Of a DNA stretch of 64,000 nt, positions 4,892 to 54,795 are shown in pieces (the stretch's first letter is position 1; each line of letters begins with the position of its first letter). The stretch is from Clostridium sp. CAG:567 (lineage in GTDB: Bacteria > Bacillota > Clostridia > TANB77 > CAG-508). Made by a program: the position numbers and the translations under genes. The stretch is from contig FR902170.1 in NCBI GenBank assembly GCA_000437855.1, positions 28,692 through 92,691 of the forward strand. The letters run 5' to 3'. The notes below the pieces were generated by a model that was not told where the DNA came from, did not search any database, and was given only the letters and a program-made list of their open reading frames with translations.

Positions 4892-5014
4892 AAAAATACA
4901 AAAAATGGAAAAAATTTCCAAAAACCTATTGCAAAATTTTTATATTCATAATATAATCATGAAAGTAAAAAAAATGTAAAAATTTTACAAATTTAAAAAT
5001 AGGGGGAAATAGAA

Positions 5015-5833
5015 GTGAATGAAAAAATTACAGTATTAGTAGCAGATGACAATAGTGACTTTACTATGACATTATCAAATTATTTAGAAAAAGAGGAACA
5101 AATTCAGATTGTTGGAATTGCTAGAGATGGTAATGAAGCCTATGATATGGCAGTAAATTTAAAGCCAGATATATTACTACTTGATATAATAATGCCACAT
5201 CTTGATGGACTTGGAGTCTTAGAAAAATTAGGAGAAACTAATTTAGAAAAAAGACCATTATCAATTATATTATCTGCAGTAGGACAAGACAAAATAACTC
5301 AAAAAGCAATAGCACTAGGAGCACAATATTACATTGTAAAACCTTTTGATATTAATGTATTAATAAAAAGAATGAAGGAGTTAAAAAATTATCAACCTGT
5401 TCAGTTTAAAGGTGGATTTGTTACTAGAGAAATAAAGTCACAATATATAGACATTGCACCAGATCAAAAGAAAAACGAAGAAAACTTAGAAGCACTTGTA
5501 ACTAATATCATTCACGAAGTTGGAGTACCAGCTCATATAAAAGGATATCAATATTTAAGAGAAGCAATAATGATGGTAGTTAAAGATACCGAAGTAATAA
5601 ATCAAATTACAAAACAACTTTATCCAGAAATTGCATGTAAATATAAAACCACCCCAAGTAGAGTAGAAAGAGCAATCCGTCATGCAATAGAAGTAGCATG
5701 GGGAAGAGGAGAGCAAAGTGCAGTTGAAAACATATTTGGCTACACAGTATCAGCAGCCAAAGGAAAGCCAACCAATAGCGAATTTATAGCGATGATTAGC
5801 GACAAATTAAGGCTTGAATTAAAAAGTGCATAA
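5015..5833 (+). CDS. spo0A: Sporulation master regulator Spo0A
   Basis: REC domain (VLVADDN...[17 protein letters not shown]) plus the diagnostic Spo0A C-terminal domain ([17 protein letters not shown]..., [21 protein letters not shown]). GTG start with RBS AGGGGGA. Confidence 0.95.
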
Positions 5834-5840
5834 AAATAAT

Positions 5841-5880
5841 AGGACATACTCTAATTTAGAAAAAGAGTATGTCTTTCTTG
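5841..5880. terminator. Bidirectional hairpin terminator between spo0A and the convergent RHH gene
   Basis: GACATACTCT (5843-5852) pairs with AGAGTATGTC (5864-5873). T-rich tails on both strands. Confidence 0.6.
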
Positions 5881-5884
5881 TTGT

Positions 5885-6073
5885 TTATTCTTCTTCAAGA
5901 TTTTCAAGACCAAATTCAATAATTTGATTTATGACGCTATTAAAACTTATATTATTTTTTTCAGCAAGATCATTTATTTTATCAAAAGTTTTTCCACTTA
6001 TTCTTATAGTTCTAGTAATAGTATCATTCCTTTTAGAAAAGTTTAAAATTTTTAATTTTTCCATTTCAATCAC
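5885..6073 (-). CDS. Small ribbon-helix-helix (CopG/Arc-like) DNA-binding protein
   Basis: 62 aa. The pattern RTIRISGKTFDKINDLAEKNNISFNSVINQIIEFGL fits a beta-strand plus two helices, as in RHH proteins. Divergent from the nrdD-like gene. Confidence 0.4.
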   Translation of the reverse strand: MIEMEKLKILNFSKRNDTITRTIRISGKTFDKINDLAEKNNISFNSVINQIIEFGLENLEEE

Positions 6074-6167
6074 CTATTACATAGTGTACACAAAAACAAA
6101 TATATTATAAGTGTACAAAAATGTGTTTTTAACAAAAAATTGACTGCTTTGTTTAACAAAAACTCTA

Positions 6168-6196
6168 TTGACTAATAATTATATGGAATATATAAT
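6168..6196 (+). promoter_or_regulatory. Sigma-A-type promoter upstream of the nrdD-like gene
   Basis: TTGACT (6168-6173), 17 nt spacer, TATAAT (6191-6196). A second TTGACT at 6140-6145 is preceded by the same TTTAACAAAAA motif. Confidence 0.45.
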
Positions 6197-6226
6197 TAAC
6201 ATAGCTCAAAGCGAGGAGGATCAATA

Positions 6227-8398
6227 ATGTTAATTGAAGTTCCAGAAAAAGTTGCTAAAAAAATAGTTGTAAAAAGAGACGGAAAAAAGGTTGAGTTTGA
6301 TGGTGCAAAAATTGCACTTGCTATTCAAAAAGGATTTGGAGACATTGTAGGAAATGAAGATTCTAAAACAGCTAAATATAATGAGACAGATGTTAATAAA
6401 GTATACAGTAAGGTATTAGGAAGAATACAAAAAATAGATTCAGAAAAAATAAAAATTGAAGAAATTCAAGATTTAATAGAAGAAGAACTGAAAAATAACG
6501 GATACCAAGATGTATATGGTGCTTTTGCTAGCTATCGTGAAAAAAGAGCACAATCAAGGCAATTATTTTTTGATGAAAAAAAGCAACATAAATTTCTAAA
6601 AGCACTAGAAAACTTAGGACTTAAGTCAGCTAATGTAGAAGAAAACAAAAGAGAAAAAAATAATGATAGTGAAACAACTATGGGCAATATGTTTCAATAT
6701 GCAAGTGCAATCTCAAGGCAGTTTGCTATAACATATTTAATGAAAAAGAAATTTTCAGAAGCACATGAAAATGGAGACATATATATTCATGGAATGAACT
6801 TTATTCCAACAGGTACTACCAGTTCATGTCAAATTGATATAAGTAAATTATATGATGATGGTTTTTATATAGGAAATAATTATATAAAAGAGCCAAATGG
6901 AATAATTGCATACTCGAATTTAGCAACAGTTGCAATACAAGCAAATCAAAATGATCAATATGGTGAACAAAGTATACCTTCATTTGACTATTATATGGCA
7001 CCAGGAGTTCTTAAAACATTTAAAAAGCAGTTAAAACAATTGATTTTCGATTATTTAGAGTTAACAGATTTTGATAAATTTATAGCTGTAAATGGAATAG
7101 AAAGAGAAATTGATAAAATAAATACTATTGAGTTTGATTCAAATATATTTGATAAATATTGCAGAGATTCACAAGAGCTTAAAAGAATGTTTAAAATTGC
7201 TTATACTAAAGCGATTGAAAAAACTAAAAAACTAACAGATCAAGCAATGGAATCATTTATATATGACTTAAATACAATTCATTCAAGAGCAGGAAATAAG
7301 TTACCATTTTCATGTATCAATTTTGGAACAGATACATCACCAGAAGGTAGAATGGTAATTAAATCAATATTAAAAGCAATTAATAATGGACTTGGAAATG
7401 GAGAAGAATGTGCTTTTCCAGTAGCAATTTTTAAAATAAAAAAAGGTACAAACTATAATGAAAAAGATGTAAATTATGACTTGCTTGAATTGGCATGTTC
7501 TGTAACGGTAAAAAGAAAAAATATTAATTTTTCATTTTTAGATGCAGAATTTAATATAAATGATTATAAACAAGGAGACTATGATACAGAAGTTTCATAT
7601 ACAGGAATAGGTAATAGAATACTAGAAAATGTAGTTGATTCTAATAAAGCAATATCTGTTGGTAGAGGAGTTCTATCAGCAACAACAATAAATTTACCAA
7701 GATTAGGAATAAAGCATGGAACTATTTCAAATAATAAAACAGATTTAAAAGGATTCTTTTTTGAACTTGAAGAAAAAATGGACTTAGTAAAAGATCAATT
7801 GTTAGAAAGATATGAAATACAATGCAAAAAAAATATATATAATTTTCCTTTTTTACTAGAACAAAATGTTTGGATAGACAGTGAACGATTAAAAGACAAT
7901 GATAATTTGAGAAAAGCACTAAAGCATGGTATTTTAAATATAGGATTTAGTGGATTAGCAGAATGCTTGAAAGCTTTAACAGGAGAACATCAAGGAGAAT
8001 CAAAAGATGCTCAAAAACTAGGAATTAAAATTGTAGAATTCATGAGAAAAAAATGTGATGAATATTCTGAAAAGTATAATTTGAATTTTAATCTAGTTGC
8101 AACGCCTAAAGAGGAAATATCAAATAAATTTATTAAATTAGATCAGGCTATTTATGGAAAACTAAAGGGTATAACAGATAAAAATCGTTATACTAACTCT
8201 TTTCATATACCGGAAGGATATAAAATTTCTGTAATAGATAAAATAAAATTAGAATCACAATATCACTGCTTAACAAATGGTGGACATATTGAAATAGTAC
8301 AAATAAAAAATGGAGATACAAAAGATATAATGAGTGTTATAAAAACTATGAAAGAAAATGGAATTGGTTATGGAAAGATAATTAATATGGAGAAATAA
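6227..8398 (+). CDS. Anaerobic ribonucleotide reductase (NrdD) homologue with ATP-cone but no thiyl Cys and no glycyl-radical C-terminus (likely non-catalytic)
   Basis: ATP-cone (VVKRDGKKVEFDGAKIALAIQKGF). NrdD blocks IYIHGMNF...SSCQIDI, GRGVLSATTINLPRLGI, RYTNSFHIP and TNGGHIEIV are present. YTGIGNRIL stands where E. coli has TPMGCRSFL. The protein ends at GIGYGKIINMEK*, before any CxxC...CxxC / RVCGY region. Confidence 0.8.
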   Translation: MLIEVPEKVAKKIVVKRDGKKVEFDGAKIALAIQKGFGDIVGNEDSKTAKYNETDVNKVYSKVLGRIQKIDSEKIKIEEIQDLIEEELKNNGYQDVYGAFASYREKRAQSRQLFFDEKKQHKFLKALENLGLKSANVEENKREKNNDSETTMGNMFQYASAISRQFAITYLMKKKFSEAHENGDIYIHGMNFIPTGTTSSCQIDISKLYDDGFYIGNNYIKEPNGIIAYSNLATVAIQANQNDQYGEQSIPSFDYYMAPGVLKTFKKQLKQLIFDYLELTDFDKFIAVNGIEREIDKINTIEFDSNIFDKYCRDSQELKRMFKIAYTKAIEKTKKLTDQAMESFIYDLNTIHSRAGNKLPFSCINFGTDTSPEGRMVIKSILKAINNGLGNGEECAFPVAIFKIKKGTNYNEKDVNYDLLELACSVTVKRKNINFSFLDAEFNINDYKQGDYDTEVSYTGIGNRILENVVDSNKAISVGRGVLSATTINLPRLGIKHGTISNNKTDLKGFFFELEEKMDLVKDQLLERYEIQCKKNIYNFPFLLEQNVWIDSERLKDNDNLRKALKHGILNIGFSGLAECLKALTGEHQGESKDAQKLGIKIVEFMRKKCDEYSEKYNLNFNLVATPKEEISNKFIKLDQAIYGKLKGITDKNRYTNSFHIPEGYKISVIDKIKLESQYHCLTNGGHIEIVQIKNGDTKDIMSVIKTMKENGIGYGKIINMEK

Positions 8399-12526: not shown

Positions 12527-13062
12527 TAATTATTTTTTCAATGATATTTTTATTTCTTATAATTGCAATTTTAAAAATGTATAATAAACTTATAAAACTA
12601 AGAAATAAAGTGAATCAATCTGAATCTGGAATAGATGTATATTTAAATCAAAGGTTTGATTTAATACCGAATTTAGTTGAATGTGTAAAATCATATACAA
12701 AGTACGAATCAGAAACTTTAAATAAAATTACAGAACTTAGAAGTGTATATAATCAAAACAAAGGACTAGACATAGAAAAAGCAACAGAACTTAATAATAT
12801 TATTAATAAAATTTTAGTAGTAGCAGAAAATTACCCTGAGCTTAAAGCGAGTGAGCAATATTTGAATTTACAAAAAAACTTGAGCAAGGTAGAGAGCCAA
12901 CTTCAAGCAGCAAGAAGAATTTACAATAATGATGTAACAAATTACAATACAAAAATAGAATCCATTCCAAATAATATAATTGCGGCAGTATTTGGATTTA
13001 AAAAAGCAGAACTATTTCAAATTGAAGAATACAAAAAAGAAAATATTAATATAAAATTATAA
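12517..13062 (+). CDS. lemA: LemA family protein
   Basis: N-terminal TM, then YNKLIKLRNKV..S.SGIDVYLNQRFDLIPNLVE..K.Y..E...L..ITELR and ...L..ARR.YN..V..YN, typical of LemA. Confidence 0.85.
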   Translation: MELIIIFSMIFLFLIIAILKMYNKLIKLRNKVNQSESGIDVYLNQRFDLIPNLVECVKSYTKYESETLNKITELRSVYNQNKGLDIEKATELNNIINKILVVAENYPELKASEQYLNLQKNLSKVESQLQAARRIYNNDVTNYNTKIESIPNNIIAAVFGFKKAELFQIEEYKKENINIKL

Positions 13063-13071
13063 GGTAGAAAT

Positions 13072-14019
13072 ATGAAAAAAGAATTTATAGAGTTATATAA
13101 TGAACTAACTAATAAAAAAGATAATGAATTATTGAAAATATGGGAAGATTCAAAAAAAGAAAAAATAAAAAGAAAAATAGTTATATTAGTAGTTCTTATT
13201 ATAGTTGATATATTAGTTGCATTGAGATTTAGTGAGGCAATTCGAAGTGTCAGAGATGTTTTTATAGTAATAGCAACAATACTTTTTTACGACTTAATTA
13301 TAGGAGTGATTGTAAATGCACTTATACAGAGCAAAACAAGAAAATATAATTCAGTATATAAGACAAAAGTAGTCGAAAAGATAATAAAAAACTTTTTTGA
13401 TGAGGTTGATTATATTCCAGAAAAGCCTCTACCTAGCAAAATATATGACGAAGGAAAATATGACGAAAACTATAATAGATATTATTCAGATGATTATGTG
13501 GATGCTAAATTAGACAATAAATATGATTTGAAAATGGCAGAGGTAAAAACAGTTTATGAAACTACGTATACAGATAGCGATGGACACACACATACAGATA
13601 GAGTGACAAGATTTCATGGCTTATTTATTAAAATTAAAATTGACAAGTCAATAAAAAATAATTTAACAATAAAACAAAATGGAACAATTCGAAAAAAAGA
13701 AAGATTAGAAATGGATTCATCAGAATTTGAAAAATATTTTGATGTAAGCTCAAATAATGATATAATTGGAATGCAAATTCTAACACATGATGTTATGGAA
13801 CTTTTATTAGAATATAGAAAGTACCTAAAATGTCCTTTTGATATTTGCATTTATGAAGACATAGTTTATATAAGAATACATTGCGGAACTATGTTTGAAG
13901 CTACAATTAGTTCAAAAGTGCTTATAGATAGAGAAAAGACTGAAGAATATTATAATATGTTAGAATTTATATATAAATTATCAAAAGAAGTAATAAAAAT
14001 GAGTGATGGTGATTACTAA
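13072..14019 (+). CDS. DUF3137-like membrane protein (usual LemA neighbour)
   Basis: Two TM helices followed by a roughly 220 aa domain (FHGLF..I....). Gene order LemA then DUF3137 is common. Confidence 0.5.
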   Translation: MKKEFIELYNELTNKKDNELLKIWEDSKKEKIKRKIVILVVLIIVDILVALRFSEAIRSVRDVFIVIATILFYDLIIGVIVNALIQSKTRKYNSVYKTKVVEKIIKNFFDEVDYIPEKPLPSKIYDEGKYDENYNRYYSDDYVDAKLDNKYDLKMAEVKTVYETTYTDSDGHTHTDRVTRFHGLFIKIKIDKSIKNNLTIKQNGTIRKKERLEMDSSEFEKYFDVSSNNDIIGMQILTHDVMELLLEYRKYLKCPFDICIYEDIVYIRIHCGTMFEATISSKVLIDREKTEEYYNMLEFIYKLSKEVIKMSDGDY

Positions 14020-14042
14020 AGTAAACTTTTTTTATGAAACAC

Positions 14043-14071
14043 TTGAAATTAAAGGAAAAAAATAGTATAAT
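14043..14071 (+). promoter_or_regulatory. Sigma-A promoter of rpsF-ssb-rpsR
   Basis: TTGAAA (14043-14048), 17 nt spacer, TATAAT (14066-14071). The leader contains the palindrome TTGCAATTAATTGCAG. Confidence 0.55.
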
Positions 14072-14144
14072 AGTAACGTTAAAAAGGAAAATATTCCTTA
14101 CTTGCAATTAATTGCAGGTTGTAATCCATGAGGAGGTGAATATA

Positions 14145-14426
14145 ATGAACAAATACGAAAGTGTTGTCATTATTGATCCAGCTGTAGAAGAAGATAAAGT
14201 AAAAGAATTATCTCAAAAATTTACAGATATAATCAATAATGATGGTAAAGTTGAAAAAGTTGAAGACCTTGGTAAGAAAAAATTAGCCTATGAAGTAAAG
14301 AAAAATAAAGAAGGTTACTATGTTGTTATCAACTTTGAAGCTAATCCAAACTTAATTTCTGAACTAGAAAGAAATTACAGAATTATGGATGAAGTAATTA
14401 AATTTATTACAATAAAAGCAGAATAA
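14145..14426 (+). CDS. rpsF: 30S ribosomal protein S6
   Basis: MNKYESVVIIDP...LAYEVKK...GYYV. RBS GAGGAGGTG. The 14112 start in the track is upstream of the RBS. Confidence 0.9.
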   Translation: MNKYESVVIIDPAVEEDKVKELSQKFTDIINNDGKVEKVEDLGKKKLAYEVKKNKEGYYVVINFEANPNLISELERNYRIMDEVIKFITIKAE

Positions 14427-14454
14427 TTTATTACAAAAAATGTGAGGTGTAAGA

Positions 14455-14883
14455 ATGAACAAAGTAATTTTAATGGGACGCTTAACAAGAGATCCAGAAG
14501 TAAGATACACACAAACAAACAACACATTAGTAGCTTCTTTTAGTTTAGCTGTAAATCGTAGATTTACTAGACCAGGAGAGGAAAGACAGGCAGATTTCAT
14601 TAATATAGTTGCATGGAGCAAATTAGGTGAATTCTGTAGCAAATATTTTAAAAAAGGTCAACAAGTTGGAATAATAGGAAGAATACAAACAAGAACTTGG
14701 GATGATGAACAAGGTCAAAAACGTTATGTAACAGAAGTTATTGCTGAAGAAGCATATTTTGCAGATAGTAAAAGAGAAGGAGAAGGAGCTGCAAACAGCT
14801 TTGACTCAACTTTTGGAACAATGCCTTCTACAGACTCTAGTTCTGATTTTGAAATTTCTTCAGGAGATGACCTACCATTTTAA
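14455..14883 (+). CDS. ssb: Single-stranded DNA-binding protein
   Basis: MNKVILMGRLTRDPEVRYT...ADFINIVAW..LGEF..KYFKKG and the acidic C-terminal DDLPF tail. Confidence 0.95.
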   Translation: MNKVILMGRLTRDPEVRYTQTNNTLVASFSLAVNRRFTRPGEERQADFINIVAWSKLGEFCSKYFKKGQQVGIIGRIQTRTWDDEQGQKRYVTEVIAEEAYFADSKREGEGAANSFDSTFGTMPSTDSSSDFEISSGDDLPF

Positions 14884-14904
14884 TTAGGATAGGGGGGAAA
14901 GAAA

Positions 14905-15183
14905 ATGGCAGACAAAAAAAATAATAAAAGAAATATGAGAAACAATGATGAAGACTATAATCCTAAATTTAGAAAAGCTAGAAAAAAGGTATGCCCATTA
15001 TGTGCAGATAAAAACTTAAAATTAGATTATAAAAATGCAGATCAATTAAGAAAATTCGTTAATGAAAAAGGAAAAATACTTCCAAGAAGAGCAACTGGAG
15101 CATGTGCAATTCATCAAAGAGATATTACACTAGCCGTTAAAAGAGCTAGACAAATAGCTATATTACCATACACAGCAGAATAG
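14905..15183 (+). CDS. rpsR: 30S ribosomal protein S18
   Basis: C.LC......LDYKN...LRKFV.E.GKILPRR.TG.CA.HQR....AVKRAR..A.LPY. Confidence 0.95.
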
Positions 15184-15186
15184 AAA

Positions 15187-15216
15187 AATACACCTTATTA
15201 AAGGTGTATTTTTTTG
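15187..15216 (+). terminator. Rho-independent terminator after rpsR
   Basis: AATACACCTT / AAGGTGTATT stem with ATTA loop, followed by TTTTT. Confidence 0.8.
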
Positions 15217-15295
15217 CATAATAAAACATTGTTTAGAAAAGTGTCAAATAGGGAATAATTTCAATAAAATAATATAGAAAATATAGGAGAATGTT

Positions 15296-16150
15296 ATGAA
15301 AATTGGAATTGCCTTATCTGGTGGAGGAATACGTGGAATAGCTCATGCAGGAGTATTAAAAGCACTTGAAGAAAATAATATTAAAATAGATGTTATAGGA
15401 GGAACAAGTGCAGGAGGAATGGTTGCAAGCTTATATGCCATGGGAATTGAACCTGAAGAAATACATATATTATTTAAGAAACACGCAAAAGAGATAATAG
15501 GGGTAAACAAAATGCCTTTTCTATCAAAATTATTAAAATATTCGTTCAATAAAAAAATGACACTTACAGGTTTTAATAATGGAGAAGCAATAGAAAAAGT
15601 ATATAATAAAATAGCTGAAGAAAGAAAAATAGAAAAAATCAATCAGATTCAAATGCCGCTGGTAATTACTACAGTAGATATTATGAAGCCAAAGGAATAT
15701 ATATTCACTAATAATATTCCTAGAAATGAAGAAGATAAATCAAAATATATTAAAGATGTTACAGTGGGAAAAGCAGTAAGAGCAAGTAGCAGTTTTCCGG
15801 CAGTATTTATGCCATGTAAAATTGACGAATATGCATTTATGGATGGAGGAGTTTTGGATAATGTACCAGTTGAAGAAGTAAGAAAACAAGGCGTAGACAA
15901 GGTTTTGGCAGTGAAATTCGATGCAGATAAAATTGAGAAAGATAGCAACTTAATGGATATTGCAATGAAAACAATTGATATTATGGGAAATAAAATATCT
16001 GAAGAAAGTTTAAAGAAAAGTGATTATGTATTAAATGTATATACAGATAAAGTTGGATTGTTAGACATAAAAAAATTAGACAAATGTTATGAATATGGAT
16101 ATCAAAGTGTGATGAAAAATATAAATGAAATAAAAAAAGCGCTACAATAA
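15296..16150 (+). CDS. Patatin-like phospholipase
   Basis: GIALSGGGIRGIAHAGVLKAL (oxyanion GGxRG), GTSAGG (GxSxG) and the DGG catalytic Asp motif (FMDGGVLDNVP). Confidence 0.85.
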   Translation: MKIGIALSGGGIRGIAHAGVLKALEENNIKIDVIGGTSAGGMVASLYAMGIEPEEIHILFKKHAKEIIGVNKMPFLSKLLKYSFNKKMTLTGFNNGEAIEKVYNKIAEERKIEKINQIQMPLVITTVDIMKPKEYIFTNNIPRNEEDKSKYIKDVTVGKAVRASSSFPAVFMPCKIDEYAFMDGGVLDNVPVEEVRKQGVDKVLAVKFDADKIEKDSNLMDIAMKTIDIMGNKISEESLKKSDYVLNVYTDKVGLLDIKKLDKCYEYGYQSVMKNINEIKKALQ

Positions 16151-16176
16151 CTGTGAACTTTTGCAATATATATAAT

Positions 16177-16216
16177 AAAAAGTGATGTAATTTAAAAATG
16201 TTACATCACTTTTTTA
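16177..16216. terminator. Bidirectional terminator hairpin
   Basis: AAAAGTGATGTAA / TTACATCACTTTT stem flanked by an A-run and a T-run, between convergent genes. Confidence 0.75.
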
Positions 16217-16219
16217 TAA

Positions 16220-17362
16220 TTATTTATTTTCAACTTTTTCAAGAGTTTCTTTTTTTACAAATAAAGAAAATACAAATATTCCTAATCCGAAAACAACAGT
16301 GAAAATTGAAATATATCCTCCAATATATGGAATTTGTTGTAATAACCATAGCACTGCCACTGAAGCAATAGAAAGTAAAATAAATTTGCCTTTAGTTTTA
16401 TTTTTTAATTTATTTGCAAAGTAGTTTCCAATTGCCATTCCTAAAATTGAAATAGTAATAGAAATAATCAATAGATAAACTATTAATAAAGCTAATCCAA
16501 CATAAGTTAAAAATCCTGTTATAAGTAAGAAAATTGATAAAAATGGAATAATTAATAATGATATAATTCCAATTGTAGCAGTTATGAATGATTTTTTGCT
16601 CATGCTATAAGTAGCTTTTTTAGCAAATCCTGGAGTAATGAATGTAGCTAATGCAATTACAACAACAGCATATAATAATAATGCAATGAAGCTTGTAATG
16701 TATTTTTGAACAAGTTCAGCAGTTGTTGGTTCTTCATGAGTAATTTTTGAGAAATTTATATTACCTACAATAATTCCGTCAGGAATTTCTAATTCTTCTT
16801 GAGCTGAATAATAAAAATCTCTACCAACTAAGTTTTGAGATTTATCTGCAAATGAAAAAGAACCTGCTATATATAAATCTCTTCCAACTTTTCCTTCAAA
16901 AGATGAATTAGATGAGTATAATTTTAAATCTCTTGCAATAAATGCATTTTTTGACAATGTAAATTCTCTAGATAAAACATAAACATCATTAATAGAACCA
17001 TTTATTGTAATTTGTTGAGCAATAGCAAATAGATTGCCAGATATTACTGCACTATCCTCAACAACTAAAGATTCTGCTAATACAAACAAATCACCACTAA
17101 CATGACCAGAAATAGTAACTTTTGTACCAAATAAAAAAGAATTTCCATTTATAGAGCCATTTAATAATAGTGAACTACCTCTTTCATATACATCTCCATT
17201 TGTATCTGAAATAGATATAGGTTGCTCTTCAACTTTTGCTGAAGATGTTGTAGCCAATACATTATTTTCTTGATCTGCAACTGAATCTTGAGCCATACAA
17301 ACAGAAGAAAATACTGTTAGCAAAATAGAAATTAAACATATAATTTTAAATGTTTTTTTCAT
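16220..17362 (-). CDS. Secreted/membrane protein with beta-helical (bactofilin/polymer-forming-like) repeat ectodomain and polytopic C-terminus
   Basis: Signal peptide MKKTFKIICLISILLTVFSSVCMA. Repeats of the type (I/V)SG.V.GDLF..A..(I/V) and G.(I/V).RDL(Y/K). About five C-terminal TM helices. Confidence 0.45.
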   Translation of the reverse strand: MKKTFKIICLISILLTVFSSVCMAQDSVADQENNVLATTSSAKVEEQPISISDTNGDVYERGSSLLLNGSINGNSFLFGTKVTISGHVSGDLFVLAESLVVEDSAVISGNLFAIAQQITINGSINDVYVLSREFTLSKNAFIARDLKLYSSNSSFEGKVGRDLYIAGSFSFADKSQNLVGRDFYYSAQEELEIPDGIIVGNINFSKITHEEPTTAELVQKYITSFIALLLYAVVVIALATFITPGFAKKATYSMSKKSFITATIGIISLLIIPFLSIFLLITGFLTYVGLALLIVYLLIISITISILGMAIGNYFANKLKNKTKGKFILLSIASVAVLWLLQQIPYIGGYISIFTVVFGLGIFVFSLFVKKETLEKVENK

Positions 17363-32313: not shown

Positions 32314-33642
32314 ATGAAAATAAATAGTAAAAAAGGCAAAACAAATTACTTAAATCAAAAAGGTATTACTCTAATAGCATTAGTAGTAACAATAGTTGTT
32401 CTTTTGATTTTAGCGGGGGTAAGTATAAACACTCTATTTGGAGATAATGGAATAATTAAAAAGGCACAAGATGCCCAAAACAGAATGAATAACGCACAAG
32501 AAAGTGATTTAAATGCACTAAATGAATTAGATGAATTTATATATGATGCAACAGGAAAATTACCAAGTACGGAAGATACGACACCATATTATCCAGATGG
32601 AACATTTTCAAAAGTAAGTAGGACAAATTTAAGTAATGGCTTAGTAATACAAGATGCAAATAAAAATGAATATGTATGGATAGAGGTACCAAAAAGCTTG
32701 TATGAAAATAGTAGTTATAATACAAAAACAACAACAGCAGATCAAAAACCGGCAAATTCAGAAGATTATGGTAAAATAGAATATTGCTTACATAAATATA
32801 CAGAAACTTATAGAAATGGTACAAGTTTTTCAGACACATATTATTCAGATGAAATGACAGGATTAACAAAAATAAAATACAATGAACTAAAACAAAAAAT
32901 GTTAAAAAGTGTATATGAAAATGGAGGCTTTTGGATAGGAAGATATGAAGCAGGAATAGCGGGAAATAGAACTTCTGGAAATATAGATTTAGAAACAGCA
33001 CCAGCTCCATTATCAACATCAAAAACAGGAACAGAAGAAAATCCAGTATATCCATATACTTATGTAACATGTAGCCAAGCACAAACACTAGCAAGTAAAT
33101 TATCAACAGGAAAAGGTTATACAAGTAGTTTAATGTTTGGAGTACAATGGGATTTAATCTTAAAACATATAGAAACAAAAGAAGTAAAAAAAGGAACAAC
33201 ATTAGAAACAATACAAAGTGCTCTAAAAGATGATAGCTCATCTTGGGGAAATTACTATAATGCAAGTTTTGAAATAAACAGAGGAAAATATGCCAAGTTT
33301 GGAGCAATAAGTACATGGTATAATTATAATAATGAAAATGGATTAGAAAATTGTGTAACATACGCAAATGGAACAAGTACAAAAGTACAAGCAACTTCGA
33401 AGAGTAGTGCAATATTATTAACAACAGGAGCAAGTGATACATGTAAAAAAATGAATATATATGACTTGGCTGGAAATGTAAGGGAATGGACATTAGAACG
33501 TTACTCTGGACGAACATCTCGTTGCGCTGATCGAGGAGGTTGTTACGCTTCAAGCTCTAGCTATTCAGTTTCTGGCCATACCTACATGGATGATACGTCC
33601 GGCACCCCAAACCTTGGCTTCAGGCTCTCACTTTATAAGTAG
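32314..33642 (+). CDS. Pilin-like N-terminal anchor fused to an FGE-sulfatase/SUMF1-type (C-type-lectin fold) domain, with a composition-shifted C-terminal 44 codons
   Basis: The N-terminus KG-ITLIALVVTIVVLLILAGVSI resembles a prepilin leader plus hydrophobic helix. C-terminal domain blocks are GGFWIGRYE, MFGVQWD, YDLAGNVREWT, RGG....., LGFRL. Confidence 0.75.
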   Translation: MKINSKKGKTNYLNQKGITLIALVVTIVVLLILAGVSINTLFGDNGIIKKAQDAQNRMNNAQESDLNALNELDEFIYDATGKLPSTEDTTPYYPDGTFSKVSRTNLSNGLVIQDANKNEYVWIEVPKSLYENSSYNTKTTTADQKPANSEDYGKIEYCLHKYTETYRNGTSFSDTYYSDEMTGLTKIKYNELKQKMLKSVYENGGFWIGRYEAGIAGNRTSGNIDLETAPAPLSTSKTGTEENPVYPYTYVTCSQAQTLASKLSTGKGYTSSLMFGVQWDLILKHIETKEVKKGTTLETIQSALKDDSSSWGNYYNASFEINRGKYAKFGAISTWYNYNNENGLENCVTYANGTSTKVQATSKSSAILLTTGASDTCKKMNIYDLAGNVREWTLERYSGRTSRCADRGGCYASSSSYSVSGHTYMDDTSGTPNLGFRLSLYK

Positions 33643-33794: not shown

Positions 33795-33824
33795 AAAACC
33801 TGAAGCCAAGAGGCCTCAGGTTTT
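33795..33824. terminator. Bidirectional terminator overlapping the arginase stop
   Basis: AAAACCTGA (33795-33803) / TCAGGTTTT (33816-33824) with a 12-nt GC-rich loop. Confidence 0.65.
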
Positions 33825-34854
33825 AAAATTTTTCAATCCATTTATTTAAAATATTTGTAGCAATTTCTTTTGTAACATTATTTTTATCAAATAATGGATT
33901 ATATTCAACTAAATCAGCTGATTTAATAATATTACTATACTTTGTAATCTCATCTGCTAAAGCATAAGTTTCTTCTAAATTAATGCCATTTTTAGCTGGA
34001 ATTGAAACACCAGGGGCAACAGTAGGATCTATTAAATCTAAATCAAAACTAATATGTACTCCATCTGTTCCGTTTGAAGCAATAGCAAAAGCTTTTTTAC
34101 AAATTTCTTCAACTCCATATTTTTTAATATCTTCAGTAGAAAATACAGTAACACCTGCATCTAATACATTACCCCATTCCCATGGATCAATATCTCTACC
34201 ACCAACAATAACAGCATTTTTGAAATTGTAAAATGGACCATCATGAAAATCAGCTAATATACTTTTTTCATAATGTGTAGCAACTGCTAGAGGCAAACCG
34301 TGTAAGTTACCAGTAACAGAAGTAGGGTAGGTATTGAAATCAGCATGTGAATCAAACCATATAATTCCCATATTTTTGTTTTCTTTTATAGAACCTAAGC
34401 TTGAACCAATTGCAGTAATATGGTCTCCACCTACAAGTAAAGGAAATTCACCATTTTGAATAACTTTACGAGTTATGTTGTATAACTTTTGATTAAATTC
34501 ATTGATTTCTTCTAAGTTTCTTTTTTCGTTTTTTGAATCTAGCGCTTTAACTGCTAAAACTAAGTTATGCATTTTTGTGTAGTATGCATCCTTTTCTGCA
34601 TTATTCATATTTTCTTCAAAATGAATTTCATGCATTTCTAGTAACAAATCATCAAATTTTGATACAAAACTATTAATATCATTTGAATCGGAATTTGAGT
34701 GAGATTCTTCACTTTTTTTGCTACCTTTCAAAATATAATTTTGAGAAATATTGCTTGGTTTTAAACCTTCTGTTAAGGCTTGTGCCCCAAGCTCAGCACC
34801 ATCAATCTTTAGACCTAAGTCAGTGCATGCACTTATAATTGATATTTTTTTCAT
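33823..34854 (-). CDS. Arginase/ureohydrolase family enzyme with an N-terminal insertion
   Basis: GGDH(I)TAIG, IWFDSHADFNT and HISFDLDLIDP Mn-binding motifs. There is an extra roughly 70-80 aa acidic/helical segment after residue ~45. Confidence 0.8.
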   Translation of the reverse strand: MKKISIISACTDLGLKIDGAELGAQALTEGLKPSNISQNYILKGSKKSEESHSNSDSNDINSFVSKFDDLLLEMHEIHFEENMNNAEKDAYYTKMHNLVLAVKALDSKNEKRNLEEINEFNQKLYNITRKVIQNGEFPLLVGGDHITAIGSSLGSIKENKNMGIIWFDSHADFNTYPTSVTGNLHGLPLAVATHYEKSILADFHDGPFYNFKNAVIVGGRDIDPWEWGNVLDAGVTVFSTEDIKKYGVEEICKKAFAIASNGTDGVHISFDLDLIDPTVAPGVSIPAKNGINLEETYALADEITKYSNIIKSADLVEYNPLFDKNNVTKEIATNILNKWIEKF

Positions 34855-35089: not shown

Positions 35090-37444
35090 TTATTTAATTT
35101 CAACTACAGTTACTCCCATTTCACCCTCACCAAATGTACCTATACGAAAACTCTTTACATGAGGATTTTTTTTCAAAAATGAATGAATGCCTTCGCGAAG
35201 CTTACCAGTGCCTTTTCCGTGAACAATTCTAACAGGTGAAATGTTTGCAGATGCACAATTGTCTAAATATTTATCAATAACATAAATTGCTTCATCAACA
35301 TTTTGACCAATAACATTTATTTCAGGAGAAACAGTTTTGGCTTTTGATTCTTTATTTGTAGTAACTTTTCCAGATTCTTTAACTTTAACACTATTAGTTA
35401 AACTCTTTCTTAAATCTGAAAGTTTAATATTCATTTTCATGTTGCCAACTTGAACTTGGACCTCATTGGATTTATTAATTTTATTACCAACAATATATCC
35501 ATTTGAACCAAGAGAAGCAATGTAAACATTTAAGCCATCTTTTACATCTGACTCAGCTAATGCTTCAAAACTATTATTTGGCTCAGTATAATGAATAGAA
35601 TTTATAGCTTTTAATTTATCATTTAGTTTATTTCTTAAATTATTTGCCTGTTTTATATCAGAAGAACTATTAAGCTCATGTATAATTTCTGTAGCTTCTT
35701 CTTTAGCGGAAAGCAAAATATCACGTGCTTCTAATTTAGCATCTTCAAGCAATTGTGCTCTTTTTTCTAAAACATCATCTTGTTTTTGTTCTAAACTTTT
35801 TCTTAAAAGCTCAACTTGTCTTAAATTTTTTTCAGTTTCTTCTTTTTGTTTTTCAATTTCTAACTTATTATCATAAATACTTTTTAATAACTCCTCAATT
35901 GGTATTTTATCATCTTTTAAATGACTATTTGCTACATTTAGTATTTGTTCATTTAAACCAAGTCTTTTACTAATAGCAAAAGCATTGCTTTTTCCAGGAA
36001 TACCAACTAATAGCTTATATGTTGGTTTTAGATTTTCTATATCAAATTCAAAACTTGCATTTTCAAATCCATCTGTTATTAATGCATATTCTTTTAATTC
36101 TTGGTAGTGTGTAGTGCAACAAACTATGCTTCCAATATCTTTTAAATAACTTAAAATACTAATTGCAAGTGCAGCACCTTCTAAAGGGTCTGTGCCAGAA
36201 CCCAGTTCATCTAATAAAACCAAACTATTATTATCAGTTATATTAGTAATTTCAACAATATTTTTTATATGTGCAGAAAATGTACTAAGAGATTCTTGTA
36301 TACTCTGCTCATCACCAATATCAGCAAATATATGCGAAAAAACACTTATGCTACTACTTTCACTACAAGGAATAGGAATACCGGAATAAGCCATTAAAAG
36401 TAGTAATCCAACAGTTTTTAAGGCAACAGTTTTTCCACCTGTATTTGGACCAGTAATTAAAAGCGAAACATAGCTTTTACCTAAAGAAATATCTATAGGA
36501 ACAACCTTATCCTTGTCAATTAAAGGATGTTTTGCTTTATATAAATCAATGTATTTGTTATTATTTAAAACAGGAATAATTCCAAAACTGTCAATTCCAA
36601 AATTAGCTTTTGCAAAAATCAAATCAATACTAGCAATAAGAGCTAAATTGTTTTTTAATTGATCAACATATTCATATAATGAAGAAGAAAGTATTTGCAA
36701 AATTCTTTCAATCTCAATATCTTCTTCAATTTTTATATGATTAATTTTATTATTTAGTTCAAATATACTTGTTGGCTCAATATATAAAGTAGAACCACTA
36801 CTAGAAGTATCATGAATAAATCCTTTTATATAACTTCTATATTCTTCTTTAACAGGTATAACATATCTATTATTACGAATTGTAACAATTGGTTCCATTA
36901 TATATTTAGCATAAGTACTAGAATGAATAAATCCATTTAACTTATCTTTAACTTCTTGCTCAAAGTTTTTTCTGTTTCTTCGTAAGCTAGCAAGCTTACT
37001 AGATGCATTATCAGCAACAGTGTTTTCATCAATTATTTTATCAAAAATATTTTTTTCAATAGAAGGGTTTGAATAAAGAAAGCTAAAATATTTTTCTAGA
37101 TATTCAAAAGTAACAGAAGAATCATCATAAAAATATTCTTTTAATTCTCTGCACATTTTTAAAAGCACAGCAAAATTAAGTAATCCTTTTATAGATAAAG
37201 TTTGATTACTTTCTAAAACTTTAATATATTTTTCTAATTCTTCAGTTTCGTAAAATGGTGGAATACCTTTTTGATGTAAAAGGGTATCAGCTTGTTTTGT
37301 TTCGTTAAGCAAAACATCAACTTGTTCATAAGAAAAATTAGGGACTAATTGCTCACACAAATTTTTCCCTAAATAAGTTTTACAATATCCACCTAAATTT
37401 TTTATTATTTCATTATATTCTAATTTATTTAAAATAGCGTCCAT
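35090..37444 (-). CDS. mutS2: Endonuclease MutS2 (MutS-family ATPase with C-terminal Smr domain)
   Basis: Walker A ITGPNTGGKTV, DELGSGTDP, long coiled coil, C-terminal Smr (E.NVIGQNVDEA....DKYLD.........RIVHGKGTG.LR..I..FLK..P.V). Confidence 0.9.
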   Translation of the reverse strand: MDAILNKLEYNEIIKNLGGYCKTYLGKNLCEQLVPNFSYEQVDVLLNETKQADTLLHQKGIPPFYETEELEKYIKVLESNQTLSIKGLLNFAVLLKMCRELKEYFYDDSSVTFEYLEKYFSFLYSNPSIEKNIFDKIIDENTVADNASSKLASLRRNRKNFEQEVKDKLNGFIHSSTYAKYIMEPIVTIRNNRYVIPVKEEYRSYIKGFIHDTSSSGSTLYIEPTSIFELNNKINHIKIEEDIEIERILQILSSSLYEYVDQLKNNLALIASIDLIFAKANFGIDSFGIIPVLNNNKYIDLYKAKHPLIDKDKVVPIDISLGKSYVSLLITGPNTGGKTVALKTVGLLLLMAYSGIPIPCSESSSISVFSHIFADIGDEQSIQESLSTFSAHIKNIVEITNITDNNSLVLLDELGSGTDPLEGAALAISILSYLKDIGSIVCCTTHYQELKEYALITDGFENASFEFDIENLKPTYKLLVGIPGKSNAFAISKRLGLNEQILNVANSHLKDDKIPIEELLKSIYDNKLEIEKQKEETEKNLRQVELLRKSLEQKQDDVLEKRAQLLEDAKLEARDILLSAKEEATEIIHELNSSSDIKQANNLRNKLNDKLKAINSIHYTEPNNSFEALAESDVKDGLNVYIASLGSNGYIVGNKINKSNEVQVQVGNMKMNIKLSDLRKSLTNSVKVKESGKVTTNKESKAKTVSPEINVIGQNVDEAIYVIDKYLDNCASANISPVRIVHGKGTGKLREGIHSFLKKNPHVKSFRIGTFGEGEMGVTVVEIK

Positions 37445-47826: not shown

Positions 47827-47860
47827 TAATAAAAATAATGAAATTTGGTAAAAAAATCAA

Positions 47861-51791: not shown

Positions 51792-53555
51792 ATGAAAACA
51801 AAGAACAAAAGAAATTATTCAAAACAAAATGGCATTACGCTAATTGCACTAGTAGTAACTATTGTAGTATTACTAATACTAGCAGGAGTAAGTATAAATG
51901 CACTATTTGGAAATACAGGAATAATACAAAAAGCAAAAGATGCTCAAAACAAAATGGATCAAGCAACACAAAATGACTTAGACTCAATAAACGGCTTAAA
52001 TGAATGGATAGATGGAAAAATAAATGGCACAACAGGAGAAGAAAGCAAACCTGTAACAAATCCATATGCTGACCAACAATGGACAATGGCATATGTATGC
52101 AATAATGGAACTTGGAGTAATACTCCATTAACTTCAGCAAATGGAGATACAATTCCAGAAGGTACACAAATTGTAGCTAAATTTTATGCTACTGGCGAAA
52201 AAATAACACCACCATCACTAAATGCTAGTAGCAGTAAAACAATACCATTTTCAGAAGGTGAGACGTATAAAGTAGTAATTGAAGGAACAGGAGAAATGGG
52301 AATATTAATAGATGCAACAAGTATTAGTGATATAAAATCAGCAAGTGGTTGGCAAATCCAAACAGTTTCATATTTTGCATGGTTACAAGGTGGAATGCAA
52401 GGTAATGCGGTATCTTGTATAACACCATATATTACAGAATTAACAATATGTGATGGAATAACAAATGTAGGCAATTTTGCTATGGCAGGAGCAACAAGTT
52501 TAAGTAAAGTTACATTAGGTAATAGTCTAAAAACAATAGGAAATTATAGTTTTAGTGGTAATAATGAGCTAAGTGAAATATCAATTCCTGATACAGTAAC
52601 AAGTGTAGGAAAAAATGCATTCAGTAGAGAGTATGGAAATATTACTAGTATAATAGTTCCAAATGAAGCAATTGCAAAGATAGTAAACGGTTCATATCAT
52701 GGAGGAACAGCCAAAGTAGTAATAGCAAATGAAAATAAGATTGCACAAAATACAATAAATGCAGAAGAAGTGGCTAATCATCCAGTAGTATATAGTGGAA
52801 AAGAAGTGACAGGATATACTTGTGATAATAGTGCAGGAGTAAACAAATGGAAAATATATCATTCAGATGGGAAAAATATATATTTAATAGCAGATAATTA
52901 TATAACAGGAAAATATATACCAGCAAAAGATGGAGCAACAATGACCGCAAGTTCAACAACCAATGCATATTATTTTAATGACACCTTATTAAATAAATAT
53001 ACAGGAGCAGTAAGTATAACAGATGCAAATATAACCCCATGGCTAAGTTATTTGAAATCAAGTTATGGTGGAAGTGATAATACAAATAATAAAAATATTA
53101 ATATGAAAGCAACAGCATATTTATTAGATACAGAAATATGGAAAGGATTTAAAAACTCAACAAAAGCAAAATATGCAATAGGAGCACCAACTTTAGATAT
53201 GTTTGTAGCATCATATAACACAAGATTTGCAAAACAAATAGAAACAATAGTGCAAGAAGCAGGATACAAACTAAAATTCACAGATGGAGATTCATATGAA
53301 TATTCTCTAGCTACCTATGATTATTTAACAGCACATCAATATAAAGACAATTATGCAAATCATATGTGGCTTGCCAGTCCGACAGCCCGCAGCAGCGACT
53401 ATTTGGTGGGCGTGAACTGCTACGGTAATGTCTACTACTACTACTACAATGACGTCAGCGGTTGTTTGGGCGTGCGTCCGCTAGTTTGTCTAGAATCTGG
53501 AGTCTCTCTCGAAAAACAAGAAGTAAATGGAGAAATTGTATATAACATAAAATAG
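51792..53555 (+). CDS. Pilin-like N-terminal anchor fused to BspA-type leucine-rich repeats and a C-terminal lectin-like domain with a composition-shifted end
   Basis: The N-terminus NG-ITLIALVVTIVVLLILAGVSI is nearly identical to gene A for about 45 aa. LRR block: I..LTI.DGIT.VG..A..G...L..VTLG.SLKTIG..SF.....L.EISIPD.VT.VG..AF. C-terminus: HMWLASP......YLVGVN..G.V.........GVRPLV.L. Confidence 0.75.
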   Translation: MKTKNKRNYSKQNGITLIALVVTIVVLLILAGVSINALFGNTGIIQKAKDAQNKMDQATQNDLDSINGLNEWIDGKINGTTGEESKPVTNPYADQQWTMAYVCNNGTWSNTPLTSANGDTIPEGTQIVAKFYATGEKITPPSLNASSSKTIPFSEGETYKVVIEGTGEMGILIDATSISDIKSASGWQIQTVSYFAWLQGGMQGNAVSCITPYITELTICDGITNVGNFAMAGATSLSKVTLGNSLKTIGNYSFSGNNELSEISIPDTVTSVGKNAFSREYGNITSIIVPNEAIAKIVNGSYHGGTAKVVIANENKIAQNTINAEEVANHPVVYSGKEVTGYTCDNSAGVNKWKIYHSDGKNIYLIADNYITGKYIPAKDGATMTASSTTNAYYFNDTLLNKYTGAVSITDANITPWLSYLKSSYGGSDNTNNKNINMKATAYLLDTEIWKGFKNSTKAKYAIGAPTLDMFVASYNTRFAKQIETIVQEAGYKLKFTDGDSYEYSLATYDYLTAHQYKDNYANHMWLASPTARSSDYLVGVNCYGNVYYYYYNDVSGCLGVRPLVCLESGVSLEKQEVNGEIVYNIK

Positions 53556-53569
53556 TAGCACTATTTTTG

Positions 53570-53608
53570 AGTAGTACTTCAATTTAAGGAAGTACTACTT
53601 TATTTTTG
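53570..53608 (+). terminator. Rho-independent terminator after pilin-like gene B
   Basis: AGTAGTACTTC / GAAGTACTACT stem followed by TTATTTTTG. Confidence 0.75.
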
Positions 53609-53789: not shown

Positions 53790-54795
53790 GTGTTAGATAA
53801 TAGAAAAAAACAAATCTTACAAGCAATAATAGAAGAATATATTAACACAGCAGAACCGGTTAGCTCAGGAGCACTAGTACAAAAATATAATTTAGACTAT
53901 AGCAGTGCAACAATCAGAAATGAAATGGCAGACTTAGAAAAAAGTGGTTACTTAGATAAACCACATACCTCAAGTCGGCAGAGTTCCATCAGCAAAAGGT
54001 TACAGGCTATATGTAGACGAACTATTAAAAGATGAGGACATCAGCTTAGAAGAAATAAAATACATACAATCTAAATTAGAAACTAGAGTTAATGAAATAG
54101 AAGAGTTAACTAAAATAGCCACAAATACATTATCAGAAGTAACACATTATACATCAGTTGCAATTGGACCTAAAACAAATCTTCAAAACATAGAAGAAGT
54201 AAAATTTGTTTTGCTAGGAACTAGAATGTTAATGGCAGTTATACTTACAGATACCGGAATTATAAAAGAAACAATTATTAAATTTGATGAAGATATTACA
54301 GAAGAACAAGTAAATACATTAAATTTCATATTTAATAATAAGCTTAAAGGAAAGCCTATAGACGAAATAGATAGACCTTTAGAAGAATACATCTTTTCAG
54401 AAATGAACTATAGTTTAAATGTTATAAAACCAATAATGCAACAACTTGATAAAGTAATAAATGAAGAAGCAAAAGTTTATTTAGAAGGAACCAACAAAGT
54501 ATTCGAGCTTCCAGAATTTAAAAGTCTAGAAGTAGCTAAAAACTTTGTAAATCTAATAGACACAAAACAAGTTATGTTAGACTTATTAAATACGGGATTT
54601 GCAAAAGATATAAATGTGTATATTGGTGATGAAAATGAAAATGAACAATTAAAAGATTTCAGTATAATAACATTTAAGCATAGATATCAAGATAAAGACT
54701 TAGGAACTATTGGAATTATAGGACCAAAAAGAATGGATTACTCAAAAGTTATTTCGGTTATGAAATATATTAGTAAAAAATTAAATGGACAATAA
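53790..54795 (+). pseudogene. hrcA: Heat-inducible repressor HrcA, interrupted by a +1 frameshift at about nt 53976
   Basis: Frame 0 gives [27 protein letters not shown].......[25 protein letters not shown], then nonsense and a stop at 54033-54035. Frame 1 is open from 53977 and reads [17 protein letters not shown]...VAIGPK... through to the listed 54211-54795 ORF. Deleting C53976 restores [14 protein letters not shown]. Confidence 0.85.

Follow-up and report, generated by a model that had tools for sequence, protein, structure and literature searches.

Diversity-generating retroelements (DGRs) are very common in the human gut, and Avd plus MutS-like DGRs of the DUF6273 type are well documented in gut phages and bacteria. 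In this study, we analyzed a 64,000-nucleotide stretch of DNA from Clostridium sp. CAG:567 (contig FR902170.1, positions 28,692 to 92,691; hereafter, the window), and in particular a G+C-rich block at the 3' end of a gene encoding a pilin-like protein with leucine-rich repeats (LRRs). An earlier note, made from the sequence alone, had proposed that this block is a DGR variable region (VR), with a fossil VR among the options that it listed. That proposal is supported by findings in relatives of the window: a template repeat (TR) adjoining the orthologous gene, VR/TR mismatches that are concentrated at TR adenines, variation among strains and species that falls almost only in the block, and a DGR cassette in a more distant relative (L027). 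Overall, our data support that positions 53367-53484 are a genuine DGR-written VR in an uncultured gut Clostridia bacterium. The VR is probably now an orphan, written by a DGR fairly recently, intact and in frame, and no longer diversified, so that it is currently static.

DGRs with MutS-like (MSL) accessory genes are a described class, and non-adjacent or remote targets are known in cellular DGRs (survey of Wu et al. 2018, PMC5758913). The window target is a target of this Avd plus MutS-like class, with a DUF6273-like variable domain. Three contigs from relatives (L027, L029 and L032) resemble the Avd plus MSL DGRs (PMC5758913) in having bAvd, a small MutS_I-domain protein beside the TR and a reverse transcriptase (RT) with the motif IGxxxSQ, and further likenesses are the adenine-specific mismatches and the position of the VR at the 3' end of the target open reading frame (ORF). 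They differ in that the RT of the relatives is convergent with the Avd-TR unit, and in that several relatives have a stand-alone target and TR with no RT or Avd within 6-10 kb, while the window has the target only.

Targets with a DUF6273 domain have been described for DGRs of gut phages, in Faecalibacterium prophages (PMC11792537) and in phages nd4 and nd12 with their tentaclins and target2 (PMC10743442), where the nd12 DGR targets DUF6273 proteins. In the Toutatisvirus hotspot there are genomes in which targets persist without a DGR (bioRxiv 10.1101/2024.10.15.618418). As in the gut-phage targets, the VR of the window lies at the C-terminal end of a DUF6273-like domain, on beta-strands, and a W-x-SP ... 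G-x-RP scaffold is held in common; phage nd12 also has the phage RT nearest to the RT family of the relatives (42% identity). In contrast to the phage targets, the gene studied here is chromosomal and sits among housekeeping genes (hemN, hrcA-grpE-dnaK), and its product joins the DUF6273-like domain to LRRs and a prepilin-like N-terminus rather than being a tail or capsid-decoration protein of a phage. In addition, this protein falls under the Pfam DUF6273 threshold, and the TR segment has no DNA match in phage records.

The DGR of Bordetella phage BPP-1 (Mtd, TR, Brt, Avd and the initiation of mutagenic homing (IMH) element; PMC3240598) shares with this locus the flow from TR to VR, A-specific mutagenesis, and a G+C-rich element at the VR 3' end that is followed by sequence differing between VR and TR. 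It is different in that the targets have no sequence similarity, a C-type lectin fold is not demonstrated here and the IMH function of our locus is putative. The DGRs of Bacteroides Type V pilus tip adhesins (bioRxiv 10.1101/2024.11.15.621889) are alike in that a DGR of a gut commensal acts on a pilus-associated adhesive protein, although they belong to another phylum, pilus class and target domain family, and the N-terminus seen here is type IV-like prepilin, and weak. What is particular to the system described here is the chromosomal pilin-like LRR protein, the existence of stand-alone modules of target and TR, and a series of loci running from a complete cassette to an empty site.

The block stands out in its composition. 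No other 120-nt segment of the window reaches the G+C fraction of positions 53365-53484, which is 0.558 against a mean of 0.279 (sd 0.054; ~5 sd), and near the block the A fraction reaches a minimum of 0.183 at 53367 (mean 0.426), with lower values in only three 120-nt segments of the 64 kb. Codons of the form NNC account for 20 of the 40 codons within 53367-53484 and 33 of the 547 in the remaining gene (Fisher p = 1e-12). The CCG, CGC and CGT codons of the gene are confined to the block, which encodes the peptide ASPTARSSDYLVGVNCYGNVYYYYYNDVSGCLGVRPLVCL in frame with the ORF at 51792-53555. The hand counts of the earlier note proved exact, both for bases (A 26, C 36, G 38 and T 40 in 53371-53510) and for codons (20 of the 33 codons of 53373-53471 end in C). 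The block that it described is real; its coordinates were slightly short, as the unit homologous to the TR is the 118 nt of 53367-53484, from TGG CTT GCC to CCG CTAG. It is extremely improbable that the block is a chance compositional fluctuation within an A+T-rich gene. Apart from its small size nothing favors chance, and a segment that ranks first of ~64,000 at ~5 sd over the window mean, a codon bias of the strength given above, and conservation and patterning of the block among orthologs all argue against it. The G+C-rich, A-poor and NNC-rich composition is explained by a TR scaffold that avoids A and by the randomization of the A positions.

Comparison of orthologs revealed that strains and species vary almost only in the block, and do so with the residues expected from AAC codons. 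Among 31 close homologs, column entropy peaks at residues 521-560 (1.16 and 1.54 bits), several 20-residue blocks elsewhere have values of 0.25 or less, and the C-terminal 27 residues are nearly invariant. The variable columns contain N, D, S, Y, C, G, H, F, I, V, R, A and T, which is the set reachable from AAC. At the DNA level, the window, its same-species contigs L011 and L007 and the sister species L014 have a shared scaffold (TGGCTTGCCAGTCCG.CAGCC..C..CAGC..C ...), and the changes among them fall in codon positions 1 and 2 with C kept in position 3. Based on ortholog DNA and TR alignments, every adenine-templated variable codon (TR AAC, AAT, TAC or ATG) is held in 53382-53465. The VR ends 71 nt ahead of the stop codon, at the 3' end of the target ORF. 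In L016, a more distant homolog in another genomic context, the block is A+T-rich and degenerate.

The sequence of the TR was predicted by writing A at every variable ortholog column (…CCG.CA GCC AAC AAC AGC AAC…), and a metagenome collection was scanned with the pattern CCAGTCCGNCAGCCAACAACAGCAAC. Exactly one contig, L026, matched the predicted TR. It carries the orthologous gene, a short hairpin and then a 112-nt repeat, with homology starting ~80 nt past the stop codon, and every variable codon is represented in the repeat by AAC, AAT or TAC. The TR has conserved flanks (GGGTATGGTTG upstream and CTAGCTTCTAAAAAACTGTGG downstream), and in L026 the downstream flank leads to the same terminator that lies past the window's stop codon. 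L026 is an error-prone assembly, and its arrangement of target and TR is repeated in the independent short-read contigs L028, L035 (a 149-kb scaffold) and L037 (a 66-kb contig). In a genome collection, a first pattern (GGCGTGCGTCCGCTNGTTTGTCT) gave no match, owing to differences among orthologs at GGC/GGT and GTT/ATT. A second pattern found only the VR of a Clostridia metagenome-assembled genome (MAG), L019, and a match in a Desulfobulbaceae response-regulator gene (L018) that was rejected as chance. Two scans of viral contigs gave nothing or chance 17-mer matches.

When the TR was translated as a pseudo-ORF, ~20 related TR “proteins” were recovered, of the form WLASPSANNxNNxMNVNYNGNVNNNNYNNNNxGxRPLASKKLWLYLLR. 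In public protein collections, non-coding TRs are routinely called as ORFs of 50-90 aa (…WLASPSANN…RPLASKKLWLYLLR; proteins P0121-P0141), and the precomputed DUF6273 label from Pfam on some of these is an artefact of annotation. Because of the calling of TRs as ORFs, TRs can be found by protein search.

Where a relative has its VR and TR on the same contig, the differences between them are concentrated at TR adenines. All 16 differences in L035 (Fisher p = 2e-10) and all 14 in L027 are at TR adenines, and L026 and L037 each have 14 at adenines and one elsewhere. L028 has 16 at adenines and five at other bases, all five in the last 14 nt, where its TR reads GGGTGTCCGCCCCG and its VR GGGCGTGCGTCCGC. 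L035 and L037 have an identical TR and different VRs, which is direct evidence of TR-driven diversification. For the window VR, the adenine test used heterologous TRs only, those of relatives; in comparison to the nearest TR, that of L026, it has 16 differences at TR adenines, three at other bases and two 3-nt insertions (Fisher p = 2.6e-7). The three non-A differences (TCA>ACA, TAC>TAT and GGC>GGT) are all common to the sister allele of L011, whose choices at the A sites differ, suggesting that both alleles were copied from one lineage-specific TR that was not found. In alignments to the TRs of L026, L028 and L035, the window VR has 118 nt and those of relatives 112 nt. Its run of five TAC codons, which the earlier note had found hard to reconcile with fresh randomization, corresponds to TR AAC AAC TAC AAC TAT with A-to-T changes in first positions, plus the extra 6 nt, which are left unexplained.

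The 3' end of the VR has an IMH-type pattern, that is, a G+C-rich end common to VR and TR (53468-53481) and then sequence that distinguishes the two (53485-53510). The G+C-rich 14-mer, GGGCGTGCGTCCGC, is nearly invariant among VRs, the sole change being GGC-to-GGT in L007, and it is identical in the TRs of L026, L035 and L037. The A-poor stretch at 53485-53510, past the VR/TR homology, is conserved in all orthologs and reads TTTGTCTAGAATCTGG after the VR and CTTCTAAAAAACTGTGG after the TR. The third-position A of the CTA, GAA and GGA codons in this stretch never varies, which suggests that adenine mutagenesis stops near 53484. By analogy with BPP-1, the VR 3' end may act as an IMH, with 53485-53510 as a candidate for the VR-specific part of the homing signal.

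A DGR-type RT, Avd and a MutS-like accessory gene are present in the more distant relative L027, whose neighborhood is partly shared with the window (prmC, whiA and hemN, followed in L027 by an acetyltransferase gene and an AAA_14/DUF4143 gene and then the target). The order from there is the pilin-like target with a DUF6273-like C-terminus, a hairpin, the MutS_I-domain protein, bAvd, the TR and the RT. The RT (RVT_1) is encoded on the other strand, and a single frameshift interrupts it in the L027 assembly; >2,000 intact homologs of ~317 aa are known from our searches and have the motifs IGAMTSQ and YQDD. The Avd matches NCBIfam DivGenRetAVD (NF033474). L029 and L032 are likewise convergent in layout, and the RNA flanks on both sides of their TRs are conserved; the fold predicted for the TR-containing intergenic region of L032 was no stabler than that of shuffled sequence (z = +1.0). 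In L029 (7567-10087), two MutS_I-domain genes flank the RT. The L032 cassette (4917-7657; 12527-16966) sits among genes for a Mob_Pre relaxase, ParE, HEPN/NTase proteins, an insertion sequence (IS) transposase and a phage-type integrase, and on this basis the master DGR cassette may itself be mobile.

Based on these components, RNA containing the 112-nt TR would be reverse-transcribed by the compact ~317-aa RT, together with Avd and the MutS-like accessory protein, with template adenines copied unfaithfully. The resulting cDNA would replace the VR at the 3' end of the target gene, so that AAC-type codons on the surface of the C-terminal DUF6273-like domain are rewritten. In the window lineage, the TR-bearing segment beside the gene would then have been deleted, leaving the VR frozen.

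An explanation in which no DGR is involved is that the block is a small hypervariable cassette, horizontally acquired or shuffled by recombination, that is maintained through positive selection and through gene conversion between paralogous genes for adhesins. Recombination clearly acts on this gene, as it is found in at least three genomic contexts, and it is mosaic and far more diverged than its flanks: of the 315 differences between the window and L007 over 21.6 kb, 151 fall in the 1.76-kb target gene, the LRR region included. This excess suggests recombination or diversifying selection beyond the VR. Recombination and selection fail, however, to account for the A-poor, NNC-rich composition, for differences to an adjoining non-coding repeat that are located at adenines (14-16 at A and 0-1 at other bases in four same-contig pairs), or for the Avd/RT cassette beside the homologous gene in L027, and we regard this explanation as very unlikely.

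The state of the DGR in the window is different from that in the relatives. Its stop codon (53553-53555) is joined directly to an intrinsic terminator at 53557-53607, seen as an inverted repeat (GTAGTACTTC-N8-GAAGTACTAC) and a T-run. In L026, L028, L035 and L037, ~333 nt lie between the stop codon and the terminator and comprise the hairpin, the TR and the 3' RNA region, and the window terminator is 96-98% identical to the sequence that closes this segment in L026 and L035. Judged by eye, from a resemblance that was not scored, the terminator also appears homologous to the end of the TR-RT intergenic region in L027, L029 and L032. Alignment with L004, L026 and L028 places the junction lacking the segment at 53553-53559 (TAG, then TAG|CACT), with an ambiguity caused by the 3-nt TAG repeat. 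L004, which encodes an identical protein, has kept the last 51 nt of the TR segment, and its deletion lies between copies of AACA(T/A)AAAATAG (AACATAAAATAG and AACAAAAAATAG). The window-type junction was observed in all other context-matched contigs (L001-L003, L005-L015, L019 and L036). The loci therefore form a deletion series, with the full segment in L028 and L035, the 51-nt remnant in L004 and none of it in the window, and the direction of change is likely TR loss rather than gain. That the TR-less junction is an assembly collapse of the VR/TR repeat was considered and rejected, because the gene 3' end between VR and TR is retained and only TAG is common across the junction.

The earlier note was also correct in stating that the window has no RT or TR. 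An ungapped TR search of both strands, run for either G+C-rich block with any mismatch allowed at a candidate A, gave only poly-A-rich noise; tblastn with the RT, Avd and MutS-like proteins of the family gave only noise against the 64 kb (E >= 0.1); and none of the conserved DGR-RNA elements were found in the window.

With the adjoining TR segment gone, and with the 64 kb devoid of an RT, Avd or MutS-like gene, the window VR is most likely an orphan, and it appears to be inactive at present. Stasis is also argued for by VR alleles that are identical across flanks diverged by 0.2-1.6%. The window's exact protein was found on 11 contigs (six are shown, each from a different sample), among which L004 has flanks 1.1-1.6% different from those of the other carriers and the window, yet 0 differences in the VR. 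Likewise, P0039, a protein of 605 aa, was recovered without any change from four samples with a flank divergence of 0.2-0.8%.

Several points weigh against this interpretation. L011 has flanks 99.3% identical to those of the window and the same TR-less junction, and its VR has 15 differences in 116 nt; the flanks of L007 are 98.4-98.7% identical to those of the window, and 31 of 116 VR positions differ. For different VR alleles to have the same TR-less junction, the deletion must have happened more than once, alleles must have recombined, or diversification must have continued after the TR was lost. Allele recombination is plausible, given the mosaic structure of the gene and the several contexts in which it is found. 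No TR seen matches the window VR in length, each being 6 nt shorter, and Foldseek did not recover the C-type lectin fold. Nothing is missing from the VR or its IMH-like end, so the block would still be competent to receive new sequence. The window covers 64 kb of the genome, and a TR or RT could lie elsewhere in it. Lastly, action in trans is normal in the relatives, since neither an RT nor Avd lies within 6-10 kb in L035 and L037.

These last points lead to the alternative that the block is a live remote target, rewritten in trans from a cognate TR (stand-alone or in a master cassette) elsewhere in the genome, in which case the loss of the adjoining TR is irrelevant. Remote DGR targets are documented (PMC5758913), and the modules of L035 and L037 have perfect VR/TR pairs, and VRs that differ under an identical TR, with neither RT nor Avd in the nearest 6-10 kb. 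The RNA flanks of the stand-alone TRs are conserved with those of the master cassettes L027 and L032. An intact VR 3' end, different VR alleles in same-species strains with the same TR-less junction, and three non-A features held in common by the window and L011 alleles, as if both came from one TR, are all consistent with continued rewriting. The identity of VR alleles across many samples and flank divergences is opposed to it. In addition, the VR/TR pattern is present only once, as a VR, in the sister-species representative MAG L019; the master-cassette TRs of L029 and L032 have many non-A differences to the window VR; and no 112-nt TR could template a 118-nt VR. Given these observations, we consider a live remote target rather unlikely and favor the orphan VR.

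The stand-alone modules consist of the target, hairpin, TR, conserved 3' RNA and terminator (L035 7750-8160, L037 2123-2540, L028 and L026). Such modules have no RT or Avd close by, and L035 and L037 have different VRs despite an identical TR, which implies that more than one TR is served in trans by an RT. The cassettes of L029 and L032 were considered as the source of the cognate RT and could not be assigned, as their TR scaffolds differ. We tentatively put forward, as a possible arrangement, a modular DGR in which target and TR modules that have no RT or Avd are served in trans by a master cassette of Avd, MutS-like protein and RT with its own TR. Recombination would then bring modules into the adhesin locus and remove them from it, and the window VR would be either a freshly orphaned module or one that is still rewritten from a TR elsewhere in the genome. 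If this were true, presence or absence of the TR would be a strain-level on/off switch for hypervariation of the adhesin.

In other respects this is one more DGR of the human gut. This target shows that a compositional signature alone, namely a G+C-rich, A-poor NNC block in an A+T-rich genome, can flag a DGR target in the absence of the other components, and such a target would be missed by RT-anchored DGR searches. The full cassette (in a relative), TR-only module, 51-nt remnant and empty site form a natural series, through which one could study the switching off of DGR targets and the persistence time of a frozen VR. As for gut Clostridia, the existence of stand-alone TR modules indicates that several TRs can be served in trans by a single RT.

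A C-type lectin fold, as in the solved variable proteins Mtd (1YU0), TvpA and 4EPS, is the expectation for DGR targets and had been suggested for this one. AlphaFold2 gave a model of the C-terminal 272 aa with a mean pLDDT (predicted local distance difference test) of 87.9, in which strands at residues 209-236 lie within the VR-encoded span (model residues 211-250). With this model, Foldseek found zero solved structures at E <= 1e-3, the best being an IgA peptidase of Thomasclavelia ramosa (9qa6, E = 7e-3), so that the suggested fold is unconfirmed rather than rejected. The best matches in BFVD were DUF6273 phage proteins (E 1e-3 to 2e-2). A 152-aa truncation was modelled poorly (pLDDT 68.6) and matched nothing by Foldseek, and a sequence search of the PDB found nothing. 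The window protein had no match to Pfam DUF6273 (PF19789) at E <= 1. PF19789 is weakly matched by 12 of 50 homologs (best E = 2.9e-4), and the L027 target scores 22.2 bits against DUF6273, with the cutoff at 23.5. The C-terminal domain of the target is thus weakly DUF6273-like.

The target gene (51792-53555, + strand, as are all of its features) encodes 587 aa, with a prepilin-like N-terminus, a BspA-type LRR region and the C-terminal variable-protein domain. The prepilin-type N-terminal methylation/transmembrane motif (aa 10-33, 51819-51890; KQNGITLIALVVTIVVLLILAG) is weak and has no Glu at +5; its match to Pfam N_methyl (E = 8e-4, 19.3 bits) is under the gathering cutoff of 21.2, and 36 of 50 homologs also match this model weakly. 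The BspA-type LRRs (aa 214-297, 52431-52682) match Pfam PF13306 (LRR_5) with 56.5 bits (E = 3e-15), and the protein has a partial match to the NCBIfam LRR adhesin HupY/LrrG. The C-terminal ~270 aa have no match in a Pfam search; the globular domain modelled there (aa 316-587, 52737-53552) has the VR on beta-strands near its end. Overall, the target is a pilin-like surface protein with LRRs and presumably functions as an adhesin.

More than 5,600 homologs of the target protein were found in gut metagenomes. Contigs that carry the gene include human gut and faecal metagenomes, and the single named genome that has it is the MAG of an uncultured member of the Clostridia, assembled from a Hadza gut metagenome. 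Carrier samples include ERR10825153, ERR14205960, ERR11473321, ERR11565447, ERR14205694 and ERZ16021050, and samples with the TR include ERZ28614142 and ERZ4560756. In the window, the gene has prmC, whiA and hemN upstream and hrcA, grpE, dnaK and dnaJ downstream.

The window has another G+C-rich block at 33499-33630, at the extreme 3' end of a different N_methyl pilin-like gene (32314-33642). Positions 33508-33627 are the runner-up in G+C among 120-nt segments of the 64 kb (52.5%), and the C-terminus of the gene product weakly matches FGE-sulfatase (E = 6e-4). This block probably represents another DGR target, one with its own TR, for which the scan of the window found no candidate. The neighboring ORFs at 33823-34854 and 35090-37444 were considered as RTs and rejected, as they encode an arginase-family protein and MutS2, respectively.

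Two further observations were made in the neighborhood of the target gene. Between the DUF4153 gene and prmC, L011 (4930-5991) and L012 have a gene for an IS-type transposase (HTH_38 plus rve, 353 aa) that is absent from the window, where the matching site is ~47830-47850. Downstream of the target, hrcA (53790-54795) requires a +1 frameshift at ~53973-53976 (..TCA AGT C GGC AGA GTT...); frame 0 meets a stop at 54035, and frame +1 yields canonical HrcA sequence. The extra C is not a sequencing error, because it is also present in the same-species samples L007, L010 and L011 and in the sister species L014 (flanks ~88% identical). It could represent a conserved programmed frameshift at a rare CGG codon, or hrcA could be a conserved split gene.

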